Part shown: piece by piece, positions 1,045 through 37,700 of the stretch | Position numbering within the stretch: position 1 is the first letter of the stretch | Layout of the letters: the number at the start of each line of letters is the position of its first letter | Assembly: GCA_030837085.1 (NCBI GenBank) | Contig: JAUPLE010000104.1 | Location: 1 to 44,850, forward strand | Direction: 5' to 3' | DNA length: 44,850 nt | DNA from: Acidobacteriota bacterium | GTDB taxonomy: Bacteria > Acidobacteriota > Aminicenantia > UBA2199 | Notes under the pieces: model-generated | Told to the model about the DNA's origin: nothing | Databases searched by the model: none | What the model saw: the letters and a program-made list of their open reading frames with translations, nothing else | Translations under genes and position numbers: made by a program

Positions 1045-4000
1045 TTACTCTTGAGATAACGCCCTAACAAATAATTGCCAGGTCTGAATAACTGCCGGAC
1101 TTTTCAGGATCGAAAAGTGAGTGCCGCTTATTTCATACGTTTTTACAGGATTAGCACAGTAATCATTCCAACTATTTAGAAATACTCGTGGAGATTGATT
1201 TGCCTTAAAATAGTGAAGCTCGGTTATAATTTTCCGAGAAGGAATATAGTCTAACCGTGCATTAGTTAAAGTTCTACCAATATTCAGGTAATAAATTAAA
1301 TCCCTGGCGCCCAATCGCTGGTAATTGGGAATTATTTGAGCCAGGTAATCCGGAATCATTGCCTTTATTATATCAACACTATAATGATTTTCTTCCCAAA
1401 AATTGACTATTGAGGACCAAATCTCATTCATATCGGTTCGATTATTCACTTCTTCATGGATTCGATTATCACCCTGCCAATACTCCAGGAACAATTCTTT
1501 TTCGGATTGCGGGGTAAAGGCAAAGGCTTGTTCTTTCCAATCCCCTTGCGGACCCGGGGCGTCGAGCAGACCGAGGAACGAGACTGCTTCTCCCAACCGT
1601 TCCAATTGCAGTACCATTTCAAAAGCAATAGTACCTCCCAAAGACCAACCCACAATACGATAAGGTCCCTTCGGTTGAACTTTTTTTATCTTCTCAATAT
1701 AGTCCTCGGCCAATTTCTCAATGGTGATATTCCGGGGACCGCAGTTTTCACGATTTATAACATCGGTGCGCAAACCCCAAATATTTAAATCCACATCCAC
1801 AGGAAATTGTTGACAGAATTCCAAATACCCTTCCACTTCCCCGCTGCCGTCGTGAACCAGGAAGAGATGATGGACCTCCGATGATCCTTTCCGCAACAAT
1901 ACAACGTAAGGATCAGCTATCCCGTGAGCCTCCTTTTCCATACCCGCTATATATTCAGCCAAATGACGAATGGAAGGTCGAATAAATACTTCCGCCAGGG
2001 GAACCTTTACCTTGAACATCTCATAGACCCGGGCTGTCATTGCCGTGGCTTTCAATGAATGTCCACCTATTTCGAAAAAATTAGCATCGATACCGATCGA
2101 CGGTTGACCTAAAATCTCAGACCACAATTCCGACAATTTCCGTTCAATCTCATTCCTCGGCACCGTAAACTCTTCTTTTATTCCAGCATTCACAACGGGA
2201 TCAGGAAGCGTTTTCCGATCGATTTTACCATTGGGATTCAAAGGGATTTTTTCAATCGACATAAAGTAAGTGGGGATCATATAATCCGGCAACTGCTGCA
2301 ATAAATATTGTCTTAGATCACTAGCGGAAACCTCTTTTTTATCGGCAGAGGCAACAAAATACGCGATGAGATATTTATCTTTATGTTCATCTTCTTTGAC
2401 CAGTACCACTGCATCTTTAATCCCGGGATAATGCAATAACCGGTTCTCTATTTCCCCCAATTCAATACGGAATCCCCTGATCTTGACCTGCTCATCGATC
2501 CGCCCCAGGTATTCGATAATCCCTTTAGTGGTTCCCCCCACCGGGGGGCCATCCGAAAGCCACCGCGCCAGGTCGCCGGTCCGATAAAACCTTTGCCTCC
2601 GGCGGGTCAGAACCTTTTTGAAAAAAGGTTCCGACACCTCCAAAAACTTCTGATTAGTTAATTCCGGGTTATTCAAATACCCCATGGAAACCCCATCACC
2701 CCCAATATACAATTCACCGGCAATATTTACCGGGCATACATTATTATATTTATCAAGGATTAGATGGACCGTATTACCAGCCGATTCCCCAATGGGAATA
2801 CTGCCAAGCGAAACAAATTGCGTTAAACTTTCCCGCTCGATTTCCAATACCGCGGATATAATCGTTGCCTCCGTGGGACCATACATATTAAACACCCGGC
2901 ACCCACTGCTCACCGATGCAAAACTCCGTTCCACCAGGTCATAAGTCAATTTCTCCGCGCCGATAAATAGAGACTTTAAAGTAATGGGAATGGTAGGCGC
3001 TTTTACAATATATTGATACTGCGTAGGCGTTACATGAAGTATGGTCACGCCATGCCGGTTCATAAAATCAACACTGGCAGCCGCGTCCATTAATACTTCT
3101 TCCGAAACCATGCAAAGACTTGCGCCGGACGTAAGAGTAATAAATATCTCCCACACCGACCAATCAAAATAATAAGAGAGGTTCTGGAGGGTGCGATCAT
3201 GAATCCCAATACCCAGGTTGTGATATCCCCAATGCAGCAGCGGCGACAAATTGGCATGGGTAATGAGCACACCTTTGGGATTCCCGGTGGAACCGGAAGT
3301 GTAGATGACATAAGCGAGATTTGAAGAGCTTAGAAGGTAAGAGGGTAAGAAGGTAAGAGGGTAAGAAGAATTATTGGGAGATTCGGAGATGTCTTCAAAA
3401 AAAAGTTTCTCACCTTCCCACCTTCCCACGCTCAACTTCTCACCTTCTTTATTGCTGGCGGTAACCAATATTTTGGCTCCGCTATCTATCAACATAAAAT
3501 CGCTGCGTTCCCCCGGGTTCCTGGGATTGATCGGCATATAAGCACAGCCAGCCTTCCATATACCCAGGATGCCGGCAAGCATTTCCAAAGAACGTTCCAC
3601 CAGCAGCCCCACAATGTCACCCGATTGGACATCCTTCCGGATCAATAAATGGGCCAGGTGCCCCGATTTTTTATTTAATTCGGAATAGGTAATATAGGAC
3701 CCATAAGACCTATAGGACATATATTCAAATAGTACTATCCCGTCGGGTGTCCGGGCTACCTGCTCTTCAAATAATCGGCAGATGTTTTTATCCTCCGGGA
3801 AATAAAGGGTTGTTCCGTTAAACTCATACAAAAGCTGCAGTTTTTTTTCTTCGGTTATAATCTCCACAGCGGCTATTTTTTGATGCGCATTTCCAATAAT
3901 TACGGATACCACCTGTTTGAAATATGCGGCAAAACGCCGCATCGTCTCCTCTTTGAAAAGTTTGGTACAATAAGTGAACGAGCAAACCAGTTTCTCTTCA

Positions 4001-7000
4001 ACTTCAGTACAGGTCAAAATAAGATCGAATTTTGCAATCCCGGTTTCGATTTCATAGGGGATTATTTTTAATTGGGATGTTTCTACGCGGGCATTTTCTT
4101 TGCCCTGGGTTTCCAGGTTTTGTAACGAAAACATAGTATCAAAGATGGGGTTACGACTAACATCACGGTTTAACAATACCTTTTCCACTAAGTCTTCAAA
4201 CTGGTACTCCTGGTTTTCAAAAGCGTCCAGGGTACTTATTTTGAGTTCCGATAAAAAATCAACGAATTCCATATGGCCTTCGGGATAGTTCCTCAGCGCC
4301 AACGTGTTGACAAACATACCAATCGTTTTTTCCAGGTCCGCATGTCGGCGGCCGGCGATAGGTGTGCCGATAACAATATCTTCCTGGCCCGTTAGCCTGG
4401 CCAATAAAATATTGTATACAGCCAGTAAAAGCATGTACAATGTTACACCCCGCGCAGCGACAATACCCTTTAAGGCAGCGGTGGCATCCGAAGGTATCGT
4501 AAAACCGAATGAGCGACCTTCAAAACTCTGTACTACCGGCCTGGGATAATCAGTGAAGATATTCAGCGCCGGTACTTCGCCTTCAAACACGTTAAGCCAA
4601 TAGGCTTCCTGCTTTTTTATTCTTTCTTTTTCGCTATATTGCCACTCGGAAAAATCTTTATATTGAATTCTTACCGGTTCCAGATGGTCACCGTTGTATA
4701 GGGCAAAAAAATCCCTGATCAATATCCCGTTGGAGACTCCGTCGGAAATAATGTGATGCATATCGACGGCCAGCACATGTTCGGTTTCCGCTTCTTTAAC
4801 CAATCCCACCCGTAGTAATGGCGCTCTCGATAAATCGAAAGCGCGGATAAAATGATTCGGTGTATTCACGAATGATGAATGATGAAGTTTTTCTACTTCG
4901 CGTTCCTTCGCGTTCTTCGCGGCCAAATCATAACATTCGATTTTAAATTCCACTTCTTCAAGTACCTTCTGCACCGGGTCCCGGCCTAACATATGAAAAG
5001 AGGTTCTTAAACTATCATGGCGCTGGATCAATTTCCCGAAAGTCACTTTTAATTTTTTGCTGTCAAGCGCCCCGGAGAGGTGGAAAACCTGCGGCATATT
5101 GTAAGCGACACTTTCTAGTTCCATTTGCTGCAAAATATACAACCGTTTTTGGGCCGATGATAAGACATAATAATCCTTTTTTTCCACGGGCTCAATCGAT
5201 AGATACTTCTCCTGCCTCACACCCTGTATAAATGCTGACAATTCTCTGATGGTGGGATTTTTAAATATTTCTATTACCGGCGTTTTTACATTAAAGGTCT
5301 TATGTACCCTTGCAGCCATGATAGTGGCCTTTAACGAATGCCCTCCTATATCAAAAAAGTTTGTGTCTACCCCCAGTTGGTCCTTTTGGATTCCCAATAT
5401 TCCCGACCATATTTCCAGCAATTTTGCTTCAATTTCATTTTGCGGGGCTGTGTGTGCGCCTACTGCGGTTACAATGGGTTCGGGTAGCGCTTTCCGGTCA
5501 ATTTTCCCGTTAGGATTCAAAGGAATTCTTTCAATTTGAATAAAATAAGCTGGAACCATATAATCCGGTAGATGCTGCGCCAAGTACTGTTTAAGTTCAG
5601 TGGTTAGGACCTCATTTCCAGTCACTTTAGCAACAAAATACGCGATGAGATATTTGTCTTTATTTTCATCTTCTTTGACCAGTATTACGGCTTCTTTAAT
5701 CCCGGGATAGTGTAATAGCCGGTTCTCTATTTCTCCCAATTCGATGCGGAATCCCCGAATCTTGACCTGCTCATCGATCCGCCCCAGGTATTCGATAATC
5801 CCTTTAGTGGCTCCCCCCGCCGGGGGGCCATCCGAAAGCCACCGCGCCAGGTCGCCGGTCTTGTAGAAAATATATGTCTTATAGGACTTATAGGACCTAT
5901 AAAATTTGTCTGCGGTTAATTCCGGGTTATTCAAATACCCCATGGAAACCCCATCGCCCCCAATATACAATTCACCGGCAATATTCACCGGGCATAAGTT
6001 ATTATATTTATCAAGGATTAGATGGATGGTGTTGCCCGCCGATTTCCCGATAGGGATACTAGTGAGCGATTTAAACTGGGCTAAACTCTCCCGGTGGATT
6101 TCCAAAACCGCTGATATAATCGTTGCCTCGGTGGGGCCATACATATTAAACACCCGGCACCCATTGCTCACCGATGCAAAACTCCGTTCCACCAGGTCAT
6201 AGGAAAGTTTCTCCGCACCGATAAATAAATACTTCAATGTAACAGGTATATTGACCGCTTTTACAAAGTATTGATATTGAGTAGGCGTGGCATGAAGTAT
6301 TGTTGCGCCATGACGGTTGATAAAATCGACCCCGGCGACCGCGTCCAACAACATACCTTCGGGCGATATGTAAAGGCTTGCACCGGTAGTGAGAGTGATA
6401 AATATCTCCCATACAGACCAATCAAAATAATAGGACAGGTTCTGGAGGGTACGATCATGAATCCCAATCCCCAGGTTGTGATATCCCCAGTGCAGCAGCG
6501 GCGACAAATTGGCGTGAGTAATAAGCACACCTTTAGGGTTCCCGGTGGAACCGGAGGTGAAAATGATATAAGCTAAATTTGAAGGGTTTAAATTCGAAGC
6601 ACGAAATTCGAAGCACGAAACAATACCCAAATTCAAATGTTCAAAATCCAAAACCATCAGATATTCAAAGTTTCTGCGTAGATTACTACTTGTCAATAAA
6701 AACCTGGCGCCGCATTCGGCTAGCATATATTCGTTCCTGGCCACAGGGGCTTTGGGGTTCAGGGGTGCATAGGCGCAACCGGCCTTCCATATACCCAGGA
6801 TACCGGTAATCATTTCAAACGAACGCTCCACCAACAAGCCCACAATATCGCCCGATTGGACACCTTTCCGGATCAATAAATGGGCTAGGTGTCCCGATTT
6901 TTTATTTAATTCGGAGTAGGTAATATAGGCCCCATAGGACCTATAGGACATATATACAAATAGCGCAATCCCATCAGGCGTCCGGGCAACCTGTTCTTCA

Positions 7001-10000
7001 AATAATTGACAAATGTTTTTCTCTTCCGGGAAGCACCGCGTTGGATCGTTAAACTCATACAAAAGCTGCTGCTTTTCTTCAACGGATATTATTTCCACTT
7101 CGGATATTTTCTTATTTATATTCTCTATAACAGTTAATACCACCTGGTTGAAATATTGTGCAAACCGCTGGATAGTCTCTTTTTTGAAAAGTTTTATACA
7201 ATAATTGAAGGAACAAACCAGTTGCTGTTCAACTTCAGTACAGCCTAAAATAAGATCGAACTTGGCAACTTCGGATTCGATTTCATAAGGTTTTACTTTC
7301 AATTGTGAAGTACCTACTTGAGGTGTTTCACTATCCCGGTTTCGGCTTTCCAAATTCTGAAAAGTAAACATAGTATCAAAAATTGGGTTACGACTTGCAT
7401 CACGGTTAACCGATACCATTTCCACTAAGTCTTCAAATTGATACTCCTGGTTTTCGAATGCTTCCAGGGTCCTTTCTCCAACTTCAGTTAAGAATTCCCC
7501 GAATTTCTTATTGCCTCCGGGATAGTTTCTTAGCGCCAACGTGTTGACAAACATACCAATGGTTTTCTCTAAATCCGCATGTCTGCGACCGGCGATTGGC
7601 GTTCCGATGATAATATCTTCCTGGTTGGTCAATTTGGCCAATAAAACATTATATAGGGCGAGTAAAGTCATGTACAATGTCGCGCCCTTCGAAGCAGCGA
7701 TACGTTTTAAGGTTCCGGTCACATCCATGGGTAATGCAAAACCGAACGAACGGCCGACAAAACTCTGCACTGACGGCCTGGGATAATCAGTGAAAATATT
7801 CAGTACCGGCACCTCACCTGTAAACACTTTAAGCCAATATGCTCCCTGCCTTGCTATTTCCTCTTTTTTCTTTTCGCTGTTTTGCCATTCGGAAAAATCT
7901 TTATATTGGATTCTTACCGGTTTTGGTTCATCGCCGTTGTAAAGGATTAAAAAATCCCTGATCAATATCCCGTTGGAGACGCCATCGGAAATAATGTGAT
8001 GCATATCGACGACCAGCACATGTTCGGTTTCCGCTTCTTTAACCAATCCCACCCTCAATAACGGCGTTTTAGTCAGATCGAAAGGGCGAATAAAATTCTT
8101 TATAAAATCAGACAACCTTGTAGACAATGTAACATCGCCCCTAATATCCCCTAACCCCGGATTCCTGACTTCCAATGTTTCGATTTCAAATTCGGCCTCA
8201 TCATTTATTCGCTGCACCGGCTCGCTTTCTATCATGGGAAAAAATGTTCTCAAACTTTCATGCCGTTTAATTAGCTTTTTAAAAGCTGTTGCCAATTTTG
8301 CCTCATCTAGTTTCCCGAAAAGATGAAAAGCCTGCGGCATGTTATAGACGGTACTTTCCAACTCCATTTGCTGCAAAATATACAGCCGTGTCTGGGCTGG
8401 TGATAAAACATAATACTCTTTTTTCTCCACTGGTTCCAGGGATGTGTATTTATCGCCTTTCACCACGTGTATACGGACTGCCAATTCCCTGATGGTAGGA
8501 TTTTTAAATATTTCCATCAATGGAATCTTTACACCCAGTACCTTATGTATATTAGAAACAACTACGGTGGCCTTTAACGAATGCCCGCCTACCTCGAAAA
8601 AGTTAGTGTCTACCCCCAATAAGTGCTCTTGGATTCCTAAAATTCCTGACCATATCTTTACTAATTTTGCCTCAATTTCATTTTTCGGCGCTGTGTGAAC
8701 ACTTCCGGTAGTTACCAGGGGTTCGGGCAGCGCTTTCCGGTCGATCTTACCGTTAGGATTTAAAGGAATTCTCTCAATTTGAATAAAATAAGAGGGGACC
8801 ATATAATCCGGTAGATGCTGCGCTAAGTATTGTTTTAGTTCAGCGGTTGGGATATCATCGCCAGCCGAATTGGCAACATAATATGCAATGAGATATTTTC
8901 CCTTGTTTTCATCCTCCTTGACCAGCACTACGGCTTCTTTAACCTGGGAATATTTGATCAATCGATTTTCGATCTCCCCACATTCGATACGGAATCCCCT
9001 GATCTTGACCTGCTCATCGATCCGCCCCAGGTATTCGATAATCCCTTTAGTGGTTCCCCCCGCCGGGGGGCCATCGGAAAGCCACCGGGCCAGGTCGCCG
9101 GTTTTGTAGAAACGGTCTTTTGTCATTTGACATTGGTCATTGGAGAAATTGTTATTACTACTAATGACCAATGACGATTGACTAATGGCATCTCGTTTAA
9201 ATCTCTCTACTGTCAATTCCGGGTTATTTAAATATCCCCTGGATACGCCGGCCCCTCCGACCAACAATTCGCCAGAGACTCCAACCGGGACCAGGAAACC
9301 GTACTTATCTACCACGTAAGCGGTGGAATTGAATATGGGTTTACCGATCGGGATTCTCTGGAGATATTCCTCATCGATCAAAAAAGTAGTTGAAAAGGTG
9401 GTATTCTCGGTTGGGCCGTAGCCATTGATAATATTCAAGTGGGGAAACCTCTTCTTTACACGATTAATATGAACCGGGGACAAGACATCACCCCCAACCA
9501 GCAAATTCTTTATTCCCACAAATATCTCAACATCCATCCCGGATAATTGGTTAAAAAGAGGTGAGGTAAGCCACATGGTAGCAATATCCAATTTTCGTAT
9601 ATTCTCCTTCAATCTTTCAGGATTCAATATCTCATCTTTAGCGGCAATACAGAGTGTCATTCCATTTAATAATGATCCCCAGATTTCAAAAGTGGAAGCA
9701 TCAAATTCCAATGCCCCGGTCTGCAAAAGTCGGTCATTCTCCCTGAATTCCACATAATTTGTATTTTTCACCAACCTTACCACATTACGATGCTCCACCA
9801 TAACAGCTTTTGGCCTGCCGGTGGAACCGGAGGTGTAGATGAGGTAAGCGAGATTTGAAGGGATTTGAAGGTAAGAGGGTAAGAACGTAAGAGAGTAAGA
9901 AGAAATTTTTGGGGATTTGTGGATTGCTTCCAAAAGAACTTTCTTACCTTCCCACCTTCTCACGCTCAACTTCTCACCTTCTTTATCGTTGGCGGAAACT

Positions 10001-13000
10001 AACAATTTAACCCCACTGTCTTTCAACATATAATCAACTCTTTCCTGGGGGTACTCCGGATCGATAGGCAGATAGGCGCCACCGGATTTTAATATACCCA
10101 GGATTCCTATGATTATTTCAATGGAACGTTCCGTTACAATACCAACGATAGAATCGGGTTTGACGCCTTTCTGTATTAGCCACCCAGCCAGGTAACAGGA
10201 TTTATTATCTAATTCGATATAGGTAACATGAGACATATGAGATGCACAAAGTGCAATCCGGTAGGGTACCCGTCCGACCTGTTCCTCAAACAATTGACAA
10301 ATGGTTTTCTTTCCCGGGAAGTCCCTCATTGTATCGTTGAACTCATACAAAAGCTGCAACTTTTCTTTCCCGGTTATTATTTCCAGTTCGGATATTTTCT
10401 TATTTTTATTTTCTATGATTGTTGATACAACCTGCTTAAAATATTGGGCAAACCGCTGGATAGTCTCTTTTTTAAAAAGTTTTGTACAATAATTGAATGA
10501 ACAAACTATTTTCTCTTCAACTTGAGTACAGGTTAAACTGAGATCGAACTTTGCAACCTCGGATTCGATTTCATAAGGTTTTATTTTCAATCGGGATGTT
10601 TCTGCCTGTGGGATTTCACTGGACCGAGTATCAAAATTTTGCAGAGTTAACATGGTGTCAAAGATAGGATTACGACTGGCATCACGTTTAAGCAATACCT
10701 TTTCCACTAAATCTTCAAATTGGTACTCCTGGTTCTCATAAGCTTCCAGGGTCTTTTCCTTGACCTCCAATAAAAAATCCACGAACCCCTTATGGCCTTC
10801 GGGATAGTTCCTCAGAGCCAGGGTATTGACAAACATGCCAATAATTTTTTCCAGGTCCGCATGCCGACGAGCAGCAATGGGTGTCCCTACAATAATATCC
10901 TCCTGGCCACTGAGTTTGGTCAATAATATACTGTAAATCGACAACAGCGCCATGTATAAAGTGCTTCCTATTTGCTGTGCCAATAGGTTTAATTCAATGG
11001 TAGACTCAGTAGATAGGTCAAACAATAGGCTGTTCCCTTCAAAACTTTGAACCTCTGGCCTGGGATAATCAAAGGGTAAATTTAAAACCGGGACTTCCCC
11101 GTTAAACTGCATTAACCAATACTTTTCCTGTTTTGCGACCGTTTTCTTTATCGTTTCGCTGATTTGCCATTCGGCATAGTCTTTGTATTGGAATTTCAAA
11201 ATAGGTAATCGCTCTCCGCCATATAAACTGATCGCTTCTCTAATAAACAACCCCATGGAGGTTCCATCAGTGACAATATGATGCATATTTACCAGGAGTA
11301 TATGCCTCTCTTTTACCGGCTTTATTACCATCACGCGCAATAATGGGGCAGCGGAAAGATCAAAAGGTCTCATAAGACGATCACATATATCAGGCATGGA
11401 AAACAGCTCTGCTGATGAAGATGGTAAAATTGAAAGATCAAAATAGTCGGAGTTAAAGTCTACTTGATCATGAATCTTCTGAATCGGCTCTTCCTCTAAT
11501 AGGTGAAAAGACGTACGCAAACTTTCATGACGTGCCAGCAATTGGCTGAAAATCCCTTCAAGAATGTCAACCTCCAATTGCCCATCTATCTCCACTGCCA
11601 GCGGTACATTGTAAGCAGAGCTTGTTAAACTCATCTGCTGCAAGATATATAATCGTTTCTGGGCCGAAGATAAACAATAATACTCTTTTTTTTCTGCCAA
11701 TTGTATGGACGCAAAAGGATCTTCACTCGATTGGAGTATATAATTGGACAACTCTCTTATGGTAGGAATACTAAATAACTCGGCCAGTGGGATATTCACA
11801 TTAAATGCTTTGTGCAGTTTTGATATTAAGATCGTGGCCTTTAAGGAATGCCCTCCCAATTCAAAAAAATTATCTTCAATACCAATCGAGTGTTCCAATT
11901 GAGATATATGCCCTGCGTCTCGCCCTAATACCTCTGCCCATATTCTTACCATCCTATTTTCCACATTATTCCGTGGGGCAATATATCCACTCCCTATTTC
12001 GATTCCCGGTTCAGGAAGCGACTGTCTGTCAATTTTGCCGTTGATAGTTAAGGGAATCCTGTTCAATTGAACAAAATAAGCTGGCACCATATAATCCGGT
12101 AATTGCTGCGCAAGGGACTTTTTTAAAGTCGCAGTCTCAAACAGCGGTTCTACAGGAACGACATAGGCGCAAAGATATTTTTCACCGATACGATTTTTTT
12201 TAACCAATACCACAGCGTCTTTCAGAAAACCGGTTTGCAGCAATCGGTTTTCTATTTCTCCAGGCTCAACGCGATAACCCCTGATTTTAACCTGGGAATC
12301 AACCCGCCCTAAAAATTCGATATTTCCGTCCGGAAGCCAGCGAGCAAGATCACCGGTTTTGTAAAGAATATAGGTCTTTTGGGACCTATCGGACCTATTA
12401 AAAATAAATTTTTCCGCAGTTAATTCCGGGTTGTTTAGATACCCCCTGGAGAGGCCGTCCCCTCCCACAAACAACTCACCCACTGCACCGATAGGAGTTA
12501 GCTGATAATGACTCCCCAGGATATAAGCCAGGGAGTTGCTGATGGGCCTGCCAATAGGAATATTTTCGTGGTATTCTCTATCTATCCGGAAAGTAGTGGA
12601 AAAGGTAGTGTTTTCCGTGGGGCCATAGCCATTGATAATATTTAATTTTGAGAATTGTTTTCTTAAGCGGTTAATATGTGCCGGCGACAGCACATCACCC
12701 CCCACCAGTAGATTTTTGAGACCTTTAAATACTTCGATATCAGTATCAAGCACCTGGTTAAAAAACGGGGCTGTCATCCACATAATGGTCACCTTAAATC
12801 GAATTACCGCTTGTTTTAACTTTCCAAAGTTCAATATCGTATCTCTATCCACCAGGTGTAGAGTTAATCCATTTAACAATGCCCCCCAGATTTCAAAGGT
12901 TGAAGCATCAAATTCCAATGCTCCAGTCTGTAAAATACTATCTGCATCCTCAAACCGGATAAAAGTATTATTCTTCACCAACCGAACCACACTTTTATGC

Positions 13001-14319: not shown

Positions 14320-14499
14320 AGATTTTCCTCTTACTTTTCCCTCAATTTTTTTTCTTATTATATTTTGAAGTCCTGTAGGTTACAAATTGGCGAAAGCCGA
14401 TACGAAGATGAACAAATAGGCAATCTACCGAGTATCAAAACGAGTAGCTTTGAAACTCCGGTCAAAGGGCAATGCAATAAAAATAAAGATAATTCGGAA

Positions 14500-16719: not shown

Positions 16720-16809
16720 TTTGCTACTCCTAATCCTGGTAATTTTAATCTTAATATTTTATCATATTTAATTTTTTTTTACCACCCTTTACATCACAAG
16801 CCCTATTTA

Positions 16810-21606: not shown

Positions 21607-21665
21607 ATTGAGTACTCCTTATCCTGAAAATGAAACAAACTTGCTGAAGTGCATTGTCATTGTTT

Positions 21666-25070: not shown

Positions 25071-25089
25071 ACTTTGTTCTCCTCATTTC

Positions 25090-28000: not shown

Positions 28001-28323
28001 TGCTGAGGATCGGTCAATTCAGCCTCCCTAGGATTGATTCCAAAGAATGAAGCATCAAAAAGATCGGTGCCTTCCAATTCTCCCTTGGCTTTTACATAAT
28101 CGGGATTTTTCAAGACCTCTGGTACAATCCCTGCTTCTTCAAGCTCACGGTCGGTGTAGAACGTAATACAATCTTTACCTTCCACCAGGTTCCGCCAGAA
28201 TTCATAAATATCTTTAGCCTTTGGAAAACGACCGGCCATTCCTATAATGGCTACACCATTTGAATTTGAATTCTCATTCTTTTCATTATCAATATTACTA
28301 ACACTATTATTATTACTTATCAT
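25090..28323 (-). CDS. Type I PKS KS-AT-ACP with KS active-site Cys replaced by Ser
   Basis: KS reads QTSSSTSL with HGTAT and NIGH retained; AT has GHSIG and HAFH (malonyl type); ACP has GGHSL. The ATG at 28323 has a GGAG-type RBS just upstream, so it is preferred over the GTG at 28353. Confidence 0.92.
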   Translation of the reverse strand: MISNNNSVSNIDNEKNENSNSNGVAIIGMAGRFPKAKDIYEFWRNLVEGKDCITFYTDRELEEAGIVPEVLKNPDYVKAKGELEGTDLFDASFFGINPREAELTDPQHRLLLECAWEAMEHAGYDSSKYNGAVGVFAGKSMDFYLILNVLPRVQKKITAGYLQAAIGNDKDSLTTTISYRLNLTGPGITIQTSSSTSLVAVCVACQSLLTYQCDMALAGGITAGPPIKSGYFYETDGIWSPDGHTRAFDAKGRGFVHANGMGMVVLKRLEDALTDGDKIWAVIRGFAVNNDGSKKVSYSAPSVDGQTEVITQALAMADVNPETIQFIETHGTATRLGDPIEMTGLIQAFRSYTEKKQFCAIGSVKTNIGHVDTAAGVVSLIKTALALHNKEIPASLYFEKPNPRIDFENSPFFVNTELQEWKTNGRGFPRRAGITSIGMGGTNAHVILEEAPIQEPSGSAREWQLILLSAKTETALEAKTNEILNFMKTQEDLVLPDLVYTLNVGRRDFNFRRMVLCETLEDAIHHMESRTPGRMIDSVCSDFSSPVIFLCTGAGSQYVNMGKELYQKESIFRENVDKCAAFLAPLLGIDLRSIIYPVEEDSGKSREQLNQTWLAHPALFVVEYSLSQMFMEWGINPAGLIGHSIGELAAACISGCFSLEDGLRLVAARSASMQTQEPGVMLAIHVKEANLMEVLAGWPDICLAAVNGPDFCVISGPIEAVERFKSLLNERHWVYRPLATTHAFHSRMMEPVMVEYEAVLKKVKLNAPRIPIISGVSGSWLTDEEAQNTQYWLEQLRQPVRFSQGIVKILENPSRVFLEIGPGNALCALAQQHKQDESRKAMFSSIRNADQKESDIAFLLKTLGKLWLSGVSTNWNNFYRDEKRHRIPLPTYPFERERYWLEGDKEIQPETRFKPRPEKELEIEKKEPTGPGTGMPSEFMSTSQEEKKELKNEEKETVKARPQLKTIYVPPNNELEKQITMIWEEILGIRPIGIEDNFFELGGHSLLATLFLSRLHEEIEVRLELKTIFENPTIAAIARLAFSEKNKSEEINDLESLLNEIEGLSQDDVQIALSEEK

Positions 28324-28349
28324 GGTCTCCTCTTTTTTCTCCTTCTGTT

Positions 28350-31300
28350 TCACGAGATCCTTAATTTTTGGGCTTGCTTAAAACGATTATTATTAAACGT
28401 CTGCCGCTGTTTATTCCCTCTATCCTGACTCCTTTTAAAAACACTCTCTGGTTGCAGTTCAGGCTTTTGATTATTACCAATATGCCCTGCGAGGGAATAA
28501 ATTGTGGGGTAACGAAATAGGTCTACAATAGTTAACTCCCGATCATAAATCTCACTCAAACGACTGTGCACCTGGGTAAGTAACAAGGAATGCCCTCCTA
28601 AATCAAAAAAATTATCGTTAATCCCAACCTTCTCCAGGTGCAAATACTCCATCCATACCGATGCGATGACTTGCTCGATCTCCGTCTGCGGCGCCTTGTA
28701 TTTTACCTCCAGATCCTGCCGAACATTGTATAATATGGGGAGAGCAGCGATATCCACTTTCCCATTGGTAGTTAAAGGCATCGCATCAATAAATACGATA
28801 AAGGCTGGGATCATGTATTCCGGTACCCGGCGACCTATCCACTCCCGCAATTCGTTGCTGCCGACTTTTTGCCCACTCCCGACAACAACATAAGCCACCA
28901 AGCGCCTGTCCCCTGGAACTATTTCACGGACCACTACAGCAACATCGGCTATAGCCGGATGCAGCCCAAGGTAAGTTTCAATCTCTGATAATTCTATCCG
29001 ATGCCCATGAACCTGTACCTGTGTATCGATCCGTCCTAAAAACTTAATGCTTCCGTCCGACTGCCAACTGCCTAAATCACCGGTTTTAAAAAGAATATAG
29101 GTCTTATAGGACTTATAGGACCTATTTTTATTTTTAATAAACTTTTCCGCCGTTAATTCCGGGTTGTTTAAATATCCCCGGGATATTCCTTCACCGCCTA
29201 TGTACATCTCACCCGGCACGCCTATGGGAACTACATTATAATACCTATCCAAAATATAAACCTTTGTATTGATGATAGGCTTCCCCACGGGAATTATCGG
29301 ATATTTTGAAAAATTCAAACCCATTTCATTTACAATCGTATATGTCGAACAAACTGTAGCTTCGGTTAAACCATACCCATTGACAATGGTAATCGCTTCG
29401 ATCAAATGATCGATATCGCCGGCGGAAAGCGCTTCTCCACCACTCAACAACAGCCTCAGTTTCCCAGGTCGCCACTCAGCGGAATTCAGTCGGGCAATCA
29501 TAGACGGAACCGTGCTGAGGATGGTTATATCTTGGGTGGAAATTAAAAGTTTTAACTTCTTTATATCCAAAAAAGAAACCCTATCCGCTAAAAATATAGC
29601 GCCGCCAGAAGTTAAAATAGGCAATATCTCTCCCACAAAACTGGCCGAGGCGATAGATGTCAATGGCAGTATCCTATCTCCAGGCCCCGGGCTATACGAA
29701 CGGATAAATGAATATACCAGGTTTACAATATTCCTATTATCGATCAAAATCCCCTTGGGCTCCCCGCTAGAACCGGATGTGTAAATCACGCAGGCAGCAT
29801 TCTCCGCACAACAGCCGTTTAGACAATTATTATCACTTTTTCCAGAAATGAAATCCTTTTCATTATCCAGGCAAACGATTCTTTTCCCGTACCACTCAAA
29901 CCGGCTTAACTCAGTAGTAGCGGTAATCAGTACCGTTGAGCAGGCATCCTTCAATATGGACATCAATCGCCCATCGGGATAGGTGGGGTCCATAGGAATA
30001 TACGCCCCTCCGGTCTTGAGTATTCCCATAACTCCTACGATCAAATCCAACGAATTTTCCATACAAATCCCAACCAGCGTCTCAGTTCCAACATTCATTT
30101 CGTGTAATAAATGTGCCAACTGGTTGGCCTGGCAATTGAGTTCTGTATACGTTAATTGTCTGTTTTCAAATATAACGGCAGTTTCATTGGGATTCTTCTC
30201 TACACAGATTTCAAATAATCGGTATATACAAATATCTGCGGGGTAATCGCAATCGGTGTCATTCCAATGAACCAATAAATGCTGCTTCTCCTCTTCCGAA
30301 AGCATGGGAAGTTGGGAAATCGCCTGGTCAACGCTGCTGAGAACCGCGTCCAGCAACGCCTGGAAATGAGCAGTTATCCGCCGGATGGTATCGACTTCAA
30401 ATAAATCCGTGCTGTACTCGAATGTTCCTTTCATACCACCCGCTTCTTCCCACATGGTTAATGACAGGTCCATCTGGGAAAAACCGGTGTCGATCTGGAT
30501 AGGAATAATGGTAAGGTCAGAAATGCTTATCGCCGGCATTGGGGCGTTCTGCAGTTGAAACATCACCTGGAATAATGGCGTTACGCCTAGATTTCGCTGT
30601 GGGTTTAACTCCTCTACCAATCGTTCAAACGGGATATCCTGGTATTTGTACGCTTCAGAAAAAGCGGAGCGAACTCCCAGGAGAAGTATCTCAAACGTGG
30701 GATTCCGGGAAAGATCCGTGCGTATGACCAATGTATTGACAAACAGACCGATTAGGCCTTCCAATTCGATGCGGTGGCGACCGGCGATAGGAATACCGAT
30801 AAGTATGTCTTCCTGACCTGAATAGCGAAATAGGAGTGTATTATAAACGGCCATTAACAGCATAAAAAGAGTAACATTCTCCCTCCGGGCCAGGGTGTTC
30901 AGTTCCTGAAGTTTGTCTCCTTGGATATAAAAGGGCTGGACCGATCCTTTCCCTGAGAGCATATTGGGTCGCGGGTGATCAGTGGGTAATTCCAGCATTG
31001 TCGGGGATCCGGCCAATGCGGTTCTCCAATAGGCTAATTGGGTCTCATATAACTGTCCCTGCATCCATTCATGGAGCCATTGTACATAATCGGTATATTG
31101 GATGGGGAGTTCGCCCAACGGTGAAGGTTTTCCTTGATTAAAGGCTTCATAGAGAGAGATTAATTCTTTCAACATGATGCCCTTGGACCAACCGTCCATG
31201 ACAATGTGATGGATACTAACCACCAGGGCATAATCGTCCGTTGCTATTCTCAGTAGCCCGGCCCGAATAAGGGGGGCGTCAGCTAAATCAAAAGGCTGCC

Positions 31301-31697
31301 GGGAGAAATGGTTAACAAAATCCCTGATTTGTTTTTCCACGTCCGTACCTGTTTGCAGGTCTAAGACAGTAATGATTAGATGTTCTATCTTTTTAAATAC
31401 CTGGGTAGGTTGCCCTTCTTTGGCTGGGAAGTTCATTTGTATGACCCGGTGGCGGCGAACAATCTCATTAAGGGTCAGTTCCAGGGTCGAGATGTTCAAA
31501 GGTCCTTTGATACGCAAAGCAGTAGGATCATTATAGGCCGCACTGCCCGGATCAAACTGTTGTAAGAACCAAATACGGCGCTGGGCAAAGGATAGTTTAA
31601 ACGGCCCCGGATCATCTCTTTTTTTCAGTACCGGGCCTCCAAGGGTTTGAATACCTTTCTTTTTCAGTAATTCTTCAAATAATTTCTGTTTGTTCAT
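28350..31697 (-). CDS. NRPS, 1115 aa: C-A(no Asp235)-T
   Basis: HHIVMDG, YTSGSSGEPKG, A4 region TSIASASFVGE, NGYGLTE, NGK and GGHSL. Confidence 0.93.
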   Translation of the reverse strand: MNKQKLFEELLKKKGIQTLGGPVLKKRDDPGPFKLSFAQRRIWFLQQFDPGSAAYNDPTALRIKGPLNISTLELTLNEIVRRHRVIQMNFPAKEGQPTQVFKKIEHLIITVLDLQTGTDVEKQIRDFVNHFSRQPFDLADAPLIRAGLLRIATDDYALVVSIHHIVMDGWSKGIMLKELISLYEAFNQGKPSPLGELPIQYTDYVQWLHEWMQGQLYETQLAYWRTALAGSPTMLELPTDHPRPNMLSGKGSVQPFYIQGDKLQELNTLARRENVTLFMLLMAVYNTLLFRYSGQEDILIGIPIAGRHRIELEGLIGLFVNTLVIRTDLSRNPTFEILLLGVRSAFSEAYKYQDIPFERLVEELNPQRNLGVTPLFQVMFQLQNAPMPAISISDLTIIPIQIDTGFSQMDLSLTMWEEAGGMKGTFEYSTDLFEVDTIRRITAHFQALLDAVLSSVDQAISQLPMLSEEEKQHLLVHWNDTDCDYPADICIYRLFEICVEKNPNETAVIFENRQLTYTELNCQANQLAHLLHEMNVGTETLVGICMENSLDLIVGVMGILKTGGAYIPMDPTYPDGRLMSILKDACSTVLITATTELSRFEWYGKRIVCLDNEKDFISGKSDNNCLNGCCAENAACVIYTSGSSGEPKGILIDNRNIVNLVYSFIRSYSPGPGDRILPLTSIASASFVGEILPILTSGGAIFLADRVSFLDIKKLKLLISTQDITILSTVPSMIARLNSAEWRPGKLRLLLSGGEALSAGDIDHLIEAITIVNGYGLTEATVCSTYTIVNEMGLNFSKYPIIPVGKPIINTKVYILDRYYNVVPIGVPGEMYIGGEGISRGYLNNPELTAEKFIKNKNRSYKSYKTYILFKTGDLGSWQSDGSIKFLGRIDTQVQVHGHRIELSEIETYLGLHPAIADVAVVVREIVPGDRRLVAYVVVGSGQKVGSNELREWIGRRVPEYMIPAFIVFIDAMPLTTNGKVDIAALPILYNVRQDLEVKYKAPQTEIEQVIASVWMEYLHLEKVGINDNFFDLGGHSLLLTQVHSRLSEIYDRELTIVDLFRYPTIYSLAGHIGNNQKPELQPESVFKRSQDRGNKQRQTFNNNRFKQAQKLRIS
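29097..29126. repeat. 9-bp tandem array (ATAGGACCT family), in frame
   Basis: ATAGGTCTT ATAGGACTT ATAGGACCT ATT; encodes NRSYKSYKTY. Confidence 0.85.
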
Positions 31698-31734
31698 AAG
31701 AAATTGATAAATTTTTCACTTCCAGGGACGGCAT

Positions 31735-34700
31735 TTAATTGGAAAAAACTTCCCTGTATGTCCTGGCGATTTCTTCAACGGTTTCCGCATCCCCCCAGGT
31801 ATCAACCACATGACCGACTATTTCCCGGATAGTGGGTTTATCGAACAGGATGTTTAACGGCAAATCGATACGAAAGACCTCCCGCATCCGAGCAATCAAT
31901 TTCGTGGCCAGCAGCGAATGTCCTCCCAGGGCAAAAAAGTCATCCTGCACGCCCACCGGTGCGATACCCAACAATTGCTCCCAGATTTCGGCAGCGATCT
32001 TTTCCGCATCTGTTTGCGGTTCCTCGTAAATATTTTGCAGTTGGGGTCTTTTATGGACCGCCGATTTAGCGCCCGCGGATTCATCCTGAACCCCGGTACT
32101 CGAAACGGGGGCAGAAACCGGCAAAACCCACTGTCGGAGACGCTTATCCAGGCTCCTGCATGAAATCACTACCTGGGGTGTCCCGGGTGAATTCATTGAT
32201 AATACCCGTTGCAACGCTTCTTTCCCTTCTTCGCTCGTTATAGACGCTGTATTGCGTATACAACCCGGTGACCGATCTCTTTGCCATTCATCCCAGTTGA
32301 TACTGATCCAGTTATTGCCATAAACTTGACTTTGTTCCCGGGCCAGAGCATCCATAAAACTATTAGCCGCACTATATGCATACAAGCCAATACCACCTAA
32401 AACCGCTGATAGTGAAGAAGTTAAAATACAAAAATCCAGGGTTTTATCTTTAAACACATCTGCTATCACATTAGCCCCATATATTTTAGGGCCAAAATGA
32501 ATTTCACAAGTTTCCTTATCCAGTTGTGAGATGGGCTTAAAGTGCTCGTCCGACATGACCCCGGCGGTATGAATTATCCCGTGGATGTCACCGAACCTTG
32601 CTTCGACCAGACGGCGCGCGTGGACCATTTGTTCTTTTACAGAAACATCGGCCTCGATAACCTGTACCTCTGCTCCAGTTTCTTCCAGGCTTTTTATACG
32701 GGGATCCCCCGTTAAATATCTTCGGTCGGTCAGTATGAGTTTGGCGTGTACGGTCTGTGCTAAATAGTGGGCAAACGTAAACCCAATCCTGCCCAGACCG
32801 CCGGTTATAAGATAAACTCCGTTCTGTCTTAATTTTATCGGAATCCCGGGATAATTTCCCAGTTTTATCGGTTCATGGGATTGCACCCAACGAGTATTCC
32901 CACGATAAGCAATCACACGGTCCGGTGGTGAAACGTTTAATTCTAAAAATAAGTTATGCAATATTTCAGTGGAAGTATCGATCTCCAGGTTTCGGCAAAT
33001 GATATTGGGATATTCCTGGGAAATTACTTTGCATGGTCCGGGGATGGTCTCTTTCAAAGGACTGATGGTATCTCCGCTCTCGATCTTAAACATATGGTCA
33101 GATATGATCCAGAATTCTATGAGATTGAACAGGGACTGTTTTCCCAGGGCTTTTACCAGGTAAAGGAGGCTGTAAATCCCCCGCTCCAGTAAAATGTCGG
33201 ACAGTTCTGACTTGGTCCAAAAATGTACGATTTTGTCGATGGTTTTATCGTGGTTTACAATATCTTCCAGTAGGGCGTTATAATCATTGGGGCAACCAGG
33301 GTTAATTTCATAAGCGTCTTCGCCGGTTCGGGCAAATTGCGCTCCGATCGTTACAGTAATGATATGTTGGCCTTTTTCTTTCAGCAGGGGGATTAACTGC
33401 TCCTGGGTTGTCAAGAAAAACAACCAGCATTTGGGCTGCGCTAGATTTTTTTCTATTTCTTGCCGATCCAGGAAGGAGGGAGCGGTTTGTTTCCAGGTGG
33501 GGATATAAAACCAATCTTCTATTTTTTTCTTTCCTTCCTCTATTATTTCCTTATCTACCGTTGCATCATTTCCTGGTTGAAGCCAATAGCTGTTCTTTGC
33601 AAAGGGATAGGTGGGCAGGGGAACACGGTGTCTTTCTTGCCCAGCGTGGAATTCTTTCCAGTCGATTTCCACACCGTGGAGCCATAATTGGCCTATGCTA
33701 TTGAGTAAATAATAGGAATCCGATATTTGTTTTTTTGGATGACGGACCAGATCAATGATTACCGTACCATCGTTTTTGTCTGTTCCCAAATGCTGTTTAA
33801 CAAAAGTACTGGCTGTCCGGCCCGGCCCAACTTCGATAAAAATGGGTACTGTAATTTCCAGGAGTTTCCTTATGCCGTCCGCAAACCGCACGGTTTGGCG
33901 TAAATGATTTGCCCAGTATGTGGGGGAGGTTGTTTCTTTTTCGGTTATCCAGTCGCCGGTTAGATTTGATATGTAGGGAATCTGGGGAGGATTTAGCCGG
34001 ACTCGTTTGGCGGTTTCTTCGAACTCCTTCAATATGGGGTTCATCATCGGGGAATGAAATGCATGGGAGGTGTGAAGTAGAGTACTGTCATATCCTTTCA
34101 GTTTCAACAGCTTTTCGAAGGAATAAACTGCATCATGGGGTCCGGAAACAGTACAGAGGTTTGAAGAATTCACTGCCGCCAGGGAGAGTTCTGCGGCGTC
34201 GCTGTTCTTGCTATTTTCCTCTAATATTGTCAGCAGGTCTTTTTCCAGGATGGGGACGCTTAACATGGCGCCGGGGGGCATTTTTTGCATTAGTTTTCCC
34301 CTGGCTACCACTAGTTTTAAAGTGTCTTCCAGGGTGAGTACTCCGGACAAACAAGCGGCAGTATATTCGCCGATGCTGTGCCCGATCATGGCATGAGGTT
34401 TGACTCCCCAATTCATTAACAATTTGGCCAGTGCATATTCGATGGTAAAAATTACCGGCTGCGTAATTTCTGTTTGGTCTATAATATCGGTCTTATTGGA
34501 CCTATAGGACTTATTATCCCTATTACCGTCAAGTGAAGGATAAAGAATCGTTTTAATATCATAATCAATAATTGGTTGTAAAATTTCAAAACAGTGGTCC
34601 ATTTCGCGGCGGAAGACCGGTACGTTCTGGTACAGGTACAGGCCCATATCGACATACTGCGAACCCTGGCCAGGGAACATGAATATAACCGGCCTGCTTC

Positions 34701-37700
34701 CGGGCTCGGAAAAAAAGATTTCTCTTTTCTCGCTGTTAGTCAGGGCTTCGATGGCTTCATCCTTATTGGAGCATACAAACATTTGCCGGTAATGAAAACG
34801 TGCCCGGCCCACATGTAAGGTATAGACCGCATCGGCCATATTTATAGAGAGCGTATTTTTTCTTAAATAATCGGCCAGGTTCCTGGCTTGTTGTTCCAAT
34901 GCAGTTTGAGTTTTTGCAGACAATAAAATCAATTCATATTGTTTAACTCCTGATCCCTCCACACTGCCCCCTAAATATTCTTCTAATATCACATGGGCGT
35001 TGGTGCCGCCGATTCCCAGGGAACTGGCGGCAGCACGACGCGGCGTCTCCGAGTCCGGCCAATCACGTAGTTTAAGGTTCACATAAAAGGGGCTGTCGGC
35101 GAAACCGATCAAGGGATTAGGTTCCGTTACATTAATACTGGGGGGAATTTGTTTATATTTAAGACATAATACCGCTTTTATTAAGCCGATAACACCGGCT
35201 GCCACATCCAGGTGACCGATATTGGCTTTTACGGAACCCAAGGCGCAGTATTGCTTGCCGCTGCCAGCACTGCCGTACGCTCGGATCAAGGCGGAAATTT
35301 CCACGGGGTCGCCCAAGACCGTACCAGTGCCGTGGGTTTCAACGTACCCAATAGTATGGGGCTGGATGCGGGATTCTTGTAGGGCTTTTAAAACCACATC
35401 CGCCTGGCCGCTTTCACCAGGACTGTGGAAGCCTACCTTTAACGAACCGTCATTGTTGATGGCTGAACCTTTAATTACGGCATAGATATGATCGTTATCT
35501 TTAACGGCTTCGGACAACCGTTTGAGCACAACAATACCGACCCCGTTGCCGAATACGGTGCCTTTAGCAGCGGCATCAAAAGGCCGACAATGGCCGTCCG
35601 GGGATAAATGGCCGCCTTCGGTATAAAAGTACCCGGTCTTTTCCGGTATTTTAACGGCGATTCCACCGCTTAAGGCTATATCACAATCATGGGCCAATAG
35701 CGCTTGCCTGGCCAGGTGAACCGCTGTCAATGAAGTAGAGCAGGCTGATTGTATGGCCACACTGGGTCCCTTTAAATTGAGCTTGTAAGAGACGCGGGTG
35801 GTCAAAAAATCTTTATCGTTCCCGATCATGGTCTGGAACTCTCCCTGGGTTTTTATCACACCGGGATTTTTCAATACGTTATTTAATAAATAGGTGTTCC
35901 AGCCAACCCCGGCATAGACCCCGATGGACCCGGGATAGGTTTCCCCCATATAACCGGCATCTTCCAACGCCTTCCAGGCATATTCGAGAAATATTCGCTG
36001 CTGGGGGTCCATTAACTCGGCTTCCCTGGGATGATACCCGAAAAAATCAGCGTCGAATAAATCAATGTCCCCCATTACTCCACCAGCAGCAATAAGTTTG
36101 GAACTTCCCTTTATGACCTGGTAAGCTTCGGAACTTTCCAGTTCATCTTCCTGGAAAAATGTGATGGATTCAACGCCGTTTATTATATTCCGCCAAAATT
36201 CGTCAATACCAGTCGCCCCGGGCACTCGCATGGCTATCCCAATAACTGCGATATCCCGGCTGCCCAGCCTTGTCTCCTGCGTTTCCTTTGCTTCCTCTTT
36301 TTTTACTTCGGCATCAGCCTTCCCGGTAACGTTCCCTTCTATAAATGCAGCCTGGCGCGCAATCGTAGGATACCTGAACAACTCCACTACCGATATCGCC
36401 CGCTTCAGTTTGAAGTTTTTTTCCAGTTTGCTCTTTAACTTGATGAGCAGTAAAGAATGTCCACCCAAATCGAAAAAATTATCATCCACACCAATCTTTT
36501 CTTTTTCCAGGAGCTCCTTCCAAATTTCCTGAATTTTACTTTCATATTCACTTCGTGGTGGAAGATAAGCCTCACCGATGCCAATATTGCCATCTACCTC
36601 CATGCTGACCAATGCTTTCCGGTCGATTTTCCCGTTGGGCGTCAAAGGCAAACTCGCTAGCGGCATGAAATGTGCAGGAACCATATAATCGGGAAGCGTT
36701 TTTAATAAGTACTGCCGAATCTCCGAAACAGGAACCTCCCCACTGGAAACGAAAAAGGCATAGAGATTCTTTTCTCCTTCCCTGTCCTCCCTCGCCACTA
36801 CCGCCGCCTCTTTAATACCCGAATAACGCAAGACATGGTTCTCGATCTCTCTCAACTCCACCCGGTTGCCACGAATCTTTACCTGGTGATCAATACGACC
36901 TAAAAATTCTACCCTACCGTCCGGCATCCATTTACCTAAATCACCGGTTTTGTATAGAGTGCCTCCGGCGGCCAGAAACCCTTTTGAAAAAGGGTTTCTG
37001 GACTTCCTAAAACTTTTTATGAACTTCTCTGCGGTCATCTCCGCCCGCTTCCAATACCCATAACATACACCAGCCCCTATAGCACATATCTCCCCTACTA
37101 CCCCCACCGGCTGCAATTGATAATGATGATTCAATATGAATACATTCGTGTTCAAAGACGGCCTACCAATAGGAACCTTCCGCGTATCCGTATCCACTGG
37201 GATCGTGTAATGCATTATATCATCGCTGCATTCGGTCTGACCATAACAATCCACTAAATCGATACCTATATATTTTTCATAAAATTTGTTTACGACAAAC
37301 GGTTTGGTCTCCTCCGATGTCAACGCAATCTTCCTTAACTTCTCCAGCTTTATCTTCTCTTTCCCCTCATCCAATAAGAATAGATACGTTTTTAATACCG
37401 GCGGGATAAGTTCAATAACCGTTACCCCATCTGCCTCCACCACCTGGAATTGCAAATATGGGTCCCACTCCACCTCATCCGTATACACCACCAACCGCGC
37501 CCCCATAAACAACGGCGCCAAAACCTGCCACACCGCTGCAATAACATTGATACTGAAATTATTGGCCACCGTATCCGCTTCCGTAATCCCTAACACCCCT
37601 ATTTTTGTATAGGTATGATTCACAATACCCGAATGATGCAATAACGCCCCTTTCGGTTTTCCCGTCGAACCCGAAGTGTAAATTATATAAGCCAAATCCA

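Follow-up and report, generated by a model that had tools for sequence, protein, structure and literature searches.

The window analysed here, a stretch of 44,850 nucleotides of contig JAUPLE010000104.1 from an Acidobacteriota bacterium (assembly GCA_030837085.1, class Aminicenantia), carries two copies of a palindromic hairpin repeat, one in each of two nonribosomal peptide synthetase (NRPS) genes, where each copy lies in frame in a loop of an A domain. The presence of the repeat in both NRPS loops, noticed at first from the letters of the window, is confirmed, and we consider it likely that the two sites are members of one high-copy, non-autonomous palindromic repeat family, that they were acquired separately and that they are kept as translated loops of the enzymes. 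The two copies and their host genes, the second of which is a hybrid with a polyketide synthase (PKS), are as follows.

2594..2656, plus strand (head to tail): repeat copy 1, profile search (nhmmer) E=1e-17, model positions 1-62
Parts of copy 1: T 2594; head 2595-2605; 5' arm 2606-2619; loop 2620-2621; 3' arm 2622-2635; tail 2636-2651; end 2652-2656
36960..37022, plus strand (head to tail): repeat copy 2, nhmmer E=9.6e-19
Parts of copy 2: T 36960; head 36961-36971; 5' arm 36972-36985; loop 36986-36987; 3' arm 36988-37001; tail 37002-37017; end 37018-37022
1045..14319, minus strand: host of copy 1, 4424-aa NRPS gene, four C-A-T modules plus a thioesterase (Pfam domains)
31735..39564, minus strand: host of copy 2, hybrid NRPS-PKS gene of 2609 aa, C-A-T-KS-AT-KR-ACP (Pfam domains)

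A repeat family and its two copies in the window

On the plus strand, copy 1 (2595-2649) consists of the head GCCTCCGGCGG, the arm GTCAGAACCTTTTT, GA, the arm AAAAAGGTTCCGAC and the tail ACCTCCAAAAACTT, while copy 2 (36961-37015) consists of the head GCCTCCGGCGG, the arm CCAGAAACCCTTTT, GA, the arm AAAAGGGTTTCTGG and the tail ACTTCCTAAAACTT. The original prediction had described these two stretches as sharing an 11-mer, a 14+2+14 hairpin and 14-nt tails identical at 12 of 14 positions, and this common geometry holds. The arms pair at 13/14 positions in copy 1, where the single mismatch is A.C on the plus strand and hence G.T on the gene-sense strand, and at 14/14 in copy 2. The minus-strand translation is ...NQKFLEVSEPFFKKVLTRRRQ-RF-YRTGD for copy 1, the insert being (T)NQKFLEVSEPFFKKVLTRRRQ (also written KFLEVSEPFFKKVLTRRRQ), and ...EKFI-KSFRKSRNPFSKGFLAAGG-TL-YKTGD for copy 2. 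Since the translations NQKFLEVSEPFFKKVLTRRRQ and KSFRKSRNPFSKGFLAAGG differ, the frame in which the whole element is read is not the same at the two sites, each just before YxTGD, as had been claimed. Copy 1 occupies the loop between two core motifs, which we take to be A6 and A7, in the fourth A domain of the 4424-aa NRPS, and copy 2 occupies the same loop in the sole A domain of the 2609-aa hybrid; the flanking cores at both sites are GELxIGGxGxxxGY and YxTGD. Both host genes stay open with complete domain sets, and nhmmer found only these two copies on the window contig.

The exact 11-mer head occurs 137 times in the source genome (6.94 Mb, 1045 contigs), far beyond the chance expectation of ~1.3 from base composition, and is followed by a hairpin and tail in 107 of these occurrences. 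A T precedes the head in 93/106 copies, and in the flank logos the tail runs on as ...TTTT-R-W-T-T/A-A, so that the unit comprises a T, the 11-nt head, the 14+2+14 hairpin and, in the tail, one A-run and one T-run. Thus, the hairpin geometry first proposed stands, whereas its extent of 55 bp does not, as conservation gives ~63 nt (2594-2656 and 36960-37022). An nhmmer model built from 68 copies and run against the source genome gave 522 matches at E<1e-2, 332 at E<1e-5 and 273 near full length, from which 157 distinct ungapped 63-mers were recovered. The original guess of a dispersed family, similar to repetitive extragenic palindromic (REP) elements or miniature transposable elements with inverted repeats (MITEs), had named a covariance-model scan of the genome as its check, and the profile search gave hundreds of copies. 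The excess of 522 profile matches over 137 exact 11-mers indicates that the exact head is merely the commonest among several head variants. The exact 30-nt hairpin of copy 2 has 13 genome occurrences, 12 of them outside long open frames, and the exact hairpin of copy 1 has 4, namely three A loops (that of the window included) and one contig edge.

The hairpins are at times joined with other repeats. In some copies, ~15-nt mini-hairpins of two types, with 21 and 17 genome occurrences, are nested in one arm (contigs C11, C636, C857, C952; C642, C755), and a ~110-nt element sits at the exact apex of several hairpins with different arms (C288:4097-4290; C104, C123, C530, C604, C648, C584, C709), its start motif occurring 39 times in the genome. 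A related ~100-nt unit has the same 11-nt head, a short GC hairpin and a tRNA T-loop-like stretch, and stands in tandem with the hairpin element. The 11-nt head seems to be a module common to several repeat families.

The relatives of the two A domains bear on how the copies arrived. The A-domain clade of site 2 is held together by 61-73% protein identity, where other A domains reach only 40% in the upstream part and 55% in the downstream part. Four of its seven members, three in other genomes of the genus and one source-genome paralogue, keep a native 11-residue loop, EKF[VI]xxP/NPLxPxVRMYRTGD, with no element; one has an unrelated insert, and two, the window copy and one genus genome, have the element in frames and with junctions that differ. 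Site 2 has lost the native loop, which means that the element replaced the 11 residues and was not added to them, and comparison with the four empty relatives gives no target duplication there. At site 1, the element is not in the nearest relatives of the A domain (74% identity for the neighbouring module, 66-70% for domains of two other genomes). With different subfamilies, different frames and nearest relatives free of the element, the two window copies were acquired independently. The claim of independent insertion is upheld in its first half, but an insertion added to the loop is not what site 2 contains, and the target duplication that was looked for was not seen. Since the exact hairpin of site 1 is limited to A loops and one contig edge, some A-domain copies probably spread together with A-domain sequence.

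Beyond the source genome, we scanned with one IUPAC (degenerate-base) pattern and used the reversed pattern as control, which gave 0 matches in all scanned genomes. The pattern matched 109 times in the source genome, and the 5 remaining genomes of the genus had 14-113 matches apiece; two of 13 other genera of the family were positive (32 and 2 matches), and none of 12 genomes from other families in the class. A scan with one genome per species gave at least 116 matching stretches, and 51 copies with proper hairpin and tail were parsed among the matches listed. Several of these records carry exact subfamilies of the window's genus and family, and their titles conflict on phylum; records sharing window subfamilies are counted as kin of the window. 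Three complete Desulfovibrionaceae genomes, one of them a cultured isolate, carry 16, 5 and 4 copies (control 0), the isolate being the one with 4, and two metagenome-assembled genomes of gut Clostridia carry 23 and 58 (control 0), in both groups with stems of their own and matching tails. Plasmid and phage collections gave no blastn match to the element, and a viral collection gave one match only, a complete copy with its own arms and matching tail (L155, 3864-3920 of a 9.5-kb viral contig).

Covariation of the stem, the head and the tail

Pairing was counted in 56 aligned sequences chosen for diversity, consisting of 55 of the 115 mutually distinct listed copies and the window copy. Over 19 pairs, taken from the main stem and from two interleaved small helices in the head, 98.2% of 1064 cells were paired, compared to 84.9% in shuffles and 40-61% in slid controls, and both sides had changed in 140 cells, a figure reached by 0/500 shuffles. 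That the arms differ and yet pair, through compensatory changes, had been proposed from the two window copies, and these counts extend it to the family. Within the head, positions 1-3 are complementary to 7-9 across variants (GCC/GGC, GTC/GAC, CCC/GGG, ACC/GGT), and positions 5-6 to 10-11 (CC..GG, TC..GA, CT..AG). The mutual information (MI) of true stem pairs is 0.66-1.05 bits over the 157 distinct copies. Stem mismatches that become G.T on the gene-sense strand make up 33/64 outside open reading frames (ORFs) and 13/20 inside, counts that are not independent since many such mismatches come from one subfamily.

The tail varies with the stem. Its variable positions are the same-order complement of the 5' arm, i.e. 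a mirror of the 3' arm, so that arms with ..AGGAA.., ..AGAAA.. and ..AGGGA.. go with tails of ACCTCC, ACTTCC and ACCCCC, respectively. Stems topped by T-A have AAAAAC in their tails and those topped by C-G have AAAAGC, while loop GA is found with ..AC.. and loop AT with ..AT... For five arm-tail pairs the MI over the same 157 copies is 0.75, 0.72, 0.72, 0.61 and 0.38 bits, as high as for stem pairs, and the association is present in each stratum of arm, apex and head type. On otherwise identical backgrounds there are 2, 2 and 4 cases of triple switches for three triplets, and half-switched intermediates too. Counted as pairs, four arm-tail positions fit in 96.4% of 224 cells with 55 double changes, which 0/500 shuffles reach, and slid controls give 24-52%; two count measures of the same test did not exceed the shuffles, 442 and 499 of 500 being as high. 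A permutation test of each tail's own arm against others gave 3.78 vs 0.30 (maximum 0.83) for 78 source-genome haplotypes and 2.60 vs -0.52 (maximum 0.19) for 48 haplotypes of other records, while tail models based on the reverse complement, a direct repeat or the plain reverse scored -3.2 to -7.6. Variants with short arms have correspondingly short tails.

A mirror image is not writable by templated DNA synthesis, and an intrastrand triplex, the known structural reason for a mirror-tail pattern, might by analogy account for it. The element has three consecutive blocks with the third mirroring one hairpin arm, like the BoxC, PIT and TMECO intrastrand triplex repeats, which are dispersed bacterial hairpins of the same plan (Holder et al. 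2015, PMC4666352). In the available portion of that paper, to which the comparison is limited, a homopurine block runs through the whole of such a motif, stems span 6-15 nt and loops 1-6 nt, and the rules call for homopurine/homopyrimidine blocks with allowed triads throughout, which the element does not have. Its arm runs from a purine tract through a C block to a T-run, and the purine tract changes strand mid-stem, so that a fit needs two triplex classes in series. The C block of 2-3 nt, which in the tail meets C instead of G, and a base pair that is skipped are off-rule, position a7 is partnerless (MI 0.04 for a7-t5), and a triplex would oblige three basal pairs to open or turn sharply. From the same portion of the source, purine-type triplexes do not form in RNA (PMC4666352). 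The predicted fold offers an alternative use of the tail, namely head-tail pairing via G.U or G.T on the gene-sense strand. Folded in gene sense, copy 1 gives -30.8 kcal/mol (z -6.1) and copy 2 gives -26.4 kcal/mol (z -4.35), and the head-tail helix is feasible in 84-100% for 8/10 positions on the gene-sense strand and in 0-29% for 4 positions on the other.

The arm-tail covariation itself is an observation, whereas the triplex is a tentative reading of aligned sequences. A broader scheme, possible but well short of probable, can be envisioned in which the element is a composite triplex with the tail as third strand, following a pyrimidine-type code in the lower stem and a purine-type code in the upper. 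This rule would be common to all subfamilies and to genomes from at least three distant lineages, and the element would be moved by machinery other than Y1/HUH that reads the invariant head-tail helix on one strand, in the way integrases read attC, with megasynthase loops as its main refuge within genes. In the attC sites of integrons, the conserved ends pair on one strand, the central palindrome varies and structure outweighs sequence. The element is like attC in this logic only, being found in no cassette arrays, and an analogy is meant, not membership.

Copies within genes and the A6-A7 loop

Taking the 332 copies at E<1e-5 as base set, we called a copy in-frame if the stop-free frame around it spanned 250 codons or more and extended at least 60 codons to either side. 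By this definition 54/332 copies are in long open frames, 39 opposite to the head-to-tail direction and 15 in the same direction, and the remaining 278 are outside. From their peptides, 38 of the 54 were assigned by eye to NRPS or PKS genes at five recurrent positions: the A6-A7 loop (21 copies), the stretch before the C-domain ...IIKSFIRPFDL (9), the one after the KS ...GGTNAHVILEEY (4), the A-domain N-terminus (2) and the stretch before the LAYxxYTSGSTG core (2). For the remaining 16 the open frame has no assignment, and some of these frames are perhaps not genes. Among 247 A6-A7 loops of the source genome, defined by a regular expression and some of them false, 41 overlap an nhmmer match, in both orientations and at least three frames. 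Lengths are divisible by three in 38/39 in-ORF copies and 161/188 others, too small a difference to support a reading-frame length filter, which was rejected.

Outside genes, 95 intergenic copies could be scored, a count that excludes 64 near contig edges and 39 without a close ORF. Convergent gene pairs flank 36 of them, a mild excess, and divergent pairs 16; co-directional pairs account for 22 in one orientation and 21 in the other. A stop-stabiliser-ribosome-site cassette, with TAA in gene sense, the hairpin and GGAGG, was rejected on these intergenic counts.

In the most likely account, the unit of the family has a near-invariant 11-nt head, a 14-bp stem free to vary if paired, a 2-nt loop and a tail of A-run and T-run, and its copies are scattered genome-wide and mostly outside genes. 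A copy landing in a permissive surface loop of an NRPS or PKS, with a frame that is open, would be retained and translated as a loop of 19-21 residues. The two window copies are separate acquisitions of two subfamilies in two frames, the one at site 2 having displaced the native 11-residue loop. On this account, in-gene copies are presumably translated as peptide, as the open frames suggest, and the common position in the loop probably reflects the tolerance of the loop and not precise targeting.

The window as a whole (1-44850) is a single NRPS-PKS cluster of ~38 kb; its 5 NRPS genes have 8 A domains between them, and they are accompanied by a stand-alone KS-AT-ACP gene, an aminotransferase gene and, at the left end, an EF-P gene. 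All 8 A domains differ in sequence at the A6-A7 loop, which is mostly repeat-like: 2 hold the hairpin element, 3 a 9-mer repeat, 1 an inverted repeat based on heptamers and 2 other sequence. In alignments to solved A domains, this loop is ~10 residues longer than in linear gramicidin synthase, and many of the remaining loops in the genome hold other repeat-like sequences. Two of the window loops that hold other repeats are as follows.

5877..5901, A6-A7 loop of the third A domain: tandem 9-mer repeat, translated YRSYKSYKTY (alignment)
9122..9190, A6-A7 loop of the second A domain: inverted repeat of heptamer-like units, translated ...SLVISSNNNFSNDQCQ...

The third A domain is the closest paralogue of the copy-1 domain (74% protein identity). 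The 9-mer type, translated as NRSYKSYKTYIF and variants, fills the A6-A7 loop in the window at 5877-5901, 12369-12400 and 29095-29125. It recurs in many A domains genome-wide, and the motif is present 54 times in the genome. The neighbouring A7-A8 loop has an insert of its own in 3/4 A domains of the large NRPS (2524-2550, 5803-5829, 9046-9072), 27 nt long with a C6-N3-G6 palindrome whose core occurs 11 times in the genome, and translated PP(A/V)GG(T/A)TKG; it is not in the first A domain of that NRPS, in the A domain of the hybrid or in the solved A domains. Public contigs also pile up elsewhere in the large NRPS (3267-3463, 4843-5039, 5828-6024 and 6419-6615, at a depth of 81-631 vs ~5-60 nearby), in stretches that match variable loops, namely that before the LAYxxYTSGSTG core and that at the A-domain N-terminus (...YMSYRSYGSY...). 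Hence the large NRPS seems to carry several high-copy repeats per module.

The concentration of in-frame copies in five positions of NRPS and PKS genes, the several unrelated palindromic repeat families at the very same A6-A7 position, and native loops that are replaced, not extended, could also mean that the hairpin is a selected cis-element of megasynthase genes, e.g. a recombination hotspot for module shuffling or a translational pause site between folding units. Such a role would have to be reconciled with the 278 copies outside long open frames, with both orientations within genes (39 and 15), with co-directional intergenic counts of 22 vs 21 that give no bias related to transcription, and with the presence of the family in genomes from records of other phyla. 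We consider it unlikely.

Mobilisation, known systems and significance

The original prediction had pointed to a linked HUH transposase, and here it was not borne out. The Y1_Tnp content of the source genome is a single fragment truncated at 100 aa, with HxH kept, at a contig start (C625, 1-303); it adjoins a gene resembling by eye formate-tetrahydrofolate ligase, with no element nearby. There was no Y1_Tnp match in two carrier genomes, a genome of 91% completeness with 113 pattern matches (G001) and the complete Desulfovibrionaceae chromosome with 16 copies, and the element was near Y1 genes at 0/8 loci (+/- ~1.5 kb) in 4 genomes. Neither an IS110 DEDD domain nor TnpB was found in the source genome, which is 87% complete; that incompleteness makes the absence of a transposase there weak, and its absence from the complete chromosome is stronger.

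As a short, palindromic, high-copy repeat, the element could still be of the REP/REPIN type and moved by a RAYT (Y1 HUH) transposase, a reading for which the Y1_Tnp fragment also speaks, as do tail-to-tail inverted pairs in at least 10 of the 137 listed flanks (most copies are single) and a structure that seems to count on one strand alone, G.T-type mismatches and G.U head-tail pairs occurring only in gene sense, which single-strand transposition would predict. REPs are defined by a tetranucleotide, GTAG or CGTC, at one end of the palindrome, as given in the available part of PMC3733652. In the 56-copy consensus neither tag stands beside the stem, the 5' flank being the 11-nt head. With the tag and TnpB absent, the only fragment truncated and far from any copy, and carriers and Y1 loci as described above, movement by RAYT is improbable. 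The resemblance in form is nonetheless considerable, REPs and REPINs being, as far as the portions of the sources at hand describe them (PMC3116915, PMC3337134, PMC3733652), short high-copy hairpins that are mainly extragenic, often between convergent genes, with some inverted pairs and rarely in genes. Unlike them, the element has no tag or linked Y1, and it has a longer stem, a conserved head and tail, and a head and tail common to distant genomes while the stems differ.

In behaviour, the element is closest to the palindromic elements of Rickettsia, and in form it resembles REPs, without their tag and transposase. The Rickettsia elements, of ~150 bp and reported from Rickettsia (Ogata et al. 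2000, 2002, via the available part of PMC10969869), are likewise palindromes in frame in unrelated genes, translated at tolerated places, with several families and many insertions per genome. The present element differs in being ~63 nt long, in occurring in a free-living lineage rich in NRPS and PKS genes as well as in Desulfovibrionaceae and Clostridia, and in having most in-gene copies concentrated in megasynthase loops; the likeness drawn here is one of behaviour. With MITEs, as the same part of PMC10969869 presents them, it shares small size, non-autonomy, some intragenic copies and in-frame fusions, but the terminal inverted repeats and target duplications that define MITEs are not seen in it. 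No Rfam family reached its gathering score in the window, with only chance-level matches (E 0.75-6) around site 1. Among titles and abstract openings, neither this family nor the occurrence of palindromic repeats in NRPS loops of bacteria was the subject of any paper, though the supplementary motif lists of PMC4666352 might include it, and literature matches to the element's sequence strings came from unrelated papers only.

Several findings weigh against a mobile family that lands at random and is kept where the frame allows. There are no terminal inverted repeats, the left end (T and head) not being an inverted copy of the A/T-run right end, and the flank logos hold no target duplication, just T at -1, so that ordinary transposition is not demonstrated; since no mobilising gene was found, mobility is read from the distribution only. 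No pair of filled and empty alleles of one locus was seen, public contigs breaking at the element. Reverse frame b is used 17 times and is open in just 30-46% of copies, while frame a is used 7 times and is open in 80%; as the most-used frames are not those oftenest free of stops, random landing followed by a stop-codon filter misfits the counts. In the stem test, two measures of covariation were no better than shuffles, with further pair types at 21 vs 22.9 (461/500 as high), and kinship among the sequences alone may beat shuffles without any structure. Finally, one genus genome has a translated insert of the site-1 type in an A domain that is only ~58% identical, and part of the spread among A domains may be recombination or gene conversion, not new insertion.

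An alternative is a single ancestral insertion in an A domain, spread by domain duplication and with its frame later shifted by compensating indels. Duplication and recombination of A domains are common in NRPS genes, both copies lie in the same loop, and the site-1 type looks inherited or recombined among A domains. However, the whole element is in a different frame at each site, the stems belong to different subfamilies, each with copies elsewhere, the two A domains are distant with close relatives of each free of the element, and more than 300 further copies lie outside A domains, all of which makes common descent of the two copies very unlikely. Least credible of all is an assembly artefact in which a high-copy repeat was misjoined to NRPS contigs in a fragmented bin from a metagenome (1045 contigs, 87% complete, with public contigs of three runs breaking at the element at a depth of 418-2555 vs roughly 5-60 beside it), given that neither copy interrupts the frame of its host gene (4424 and 2609 aa, domain order complete) and that independent assemblies of four other genus genomes have in-frame A-domain copies. 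The jump in depth fits a high-copy repeat; in the public run data no contig bridges 2494-2668 and there is no excision joint, and a run of raw reads gave 15 reads, none at the element.

Considering our findings here, the most plausible interpretation is still that of a dispersed family whose members were acquired separately and kept as loops, and that would have spread by a trans-acting, hairpin-dependent mechanism acting on single strands. The identical head and tail across very distant genomes, with drifting stems, points to a widespread trans-acting factor. The three-way covariation of arm, arm and tail hints, as few sequence patterns do, at a non-B-DNA structure that is under selection, and it is directly testable with oligonucleotides, one carrier being a cultured isolate. 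Selfish palindromes in frame within genes, known mainly from Rickettsia, are found on a large scale elsewhere too, inside NRPS and PKS genes, at the A6-A7 loop, a C-domain loop, the post-KS linker and two further A-domain loops. The positions of the inserts are a natural map of where megasynthases tolerate inserts of 20 residues, which is useful for engineering and, as these loops are repeat DNA and not specificity signals, for annotation as well. In the organisms that carry the family, selfish palindromic DNA would be borne as extra protein loops in giant enzymes.

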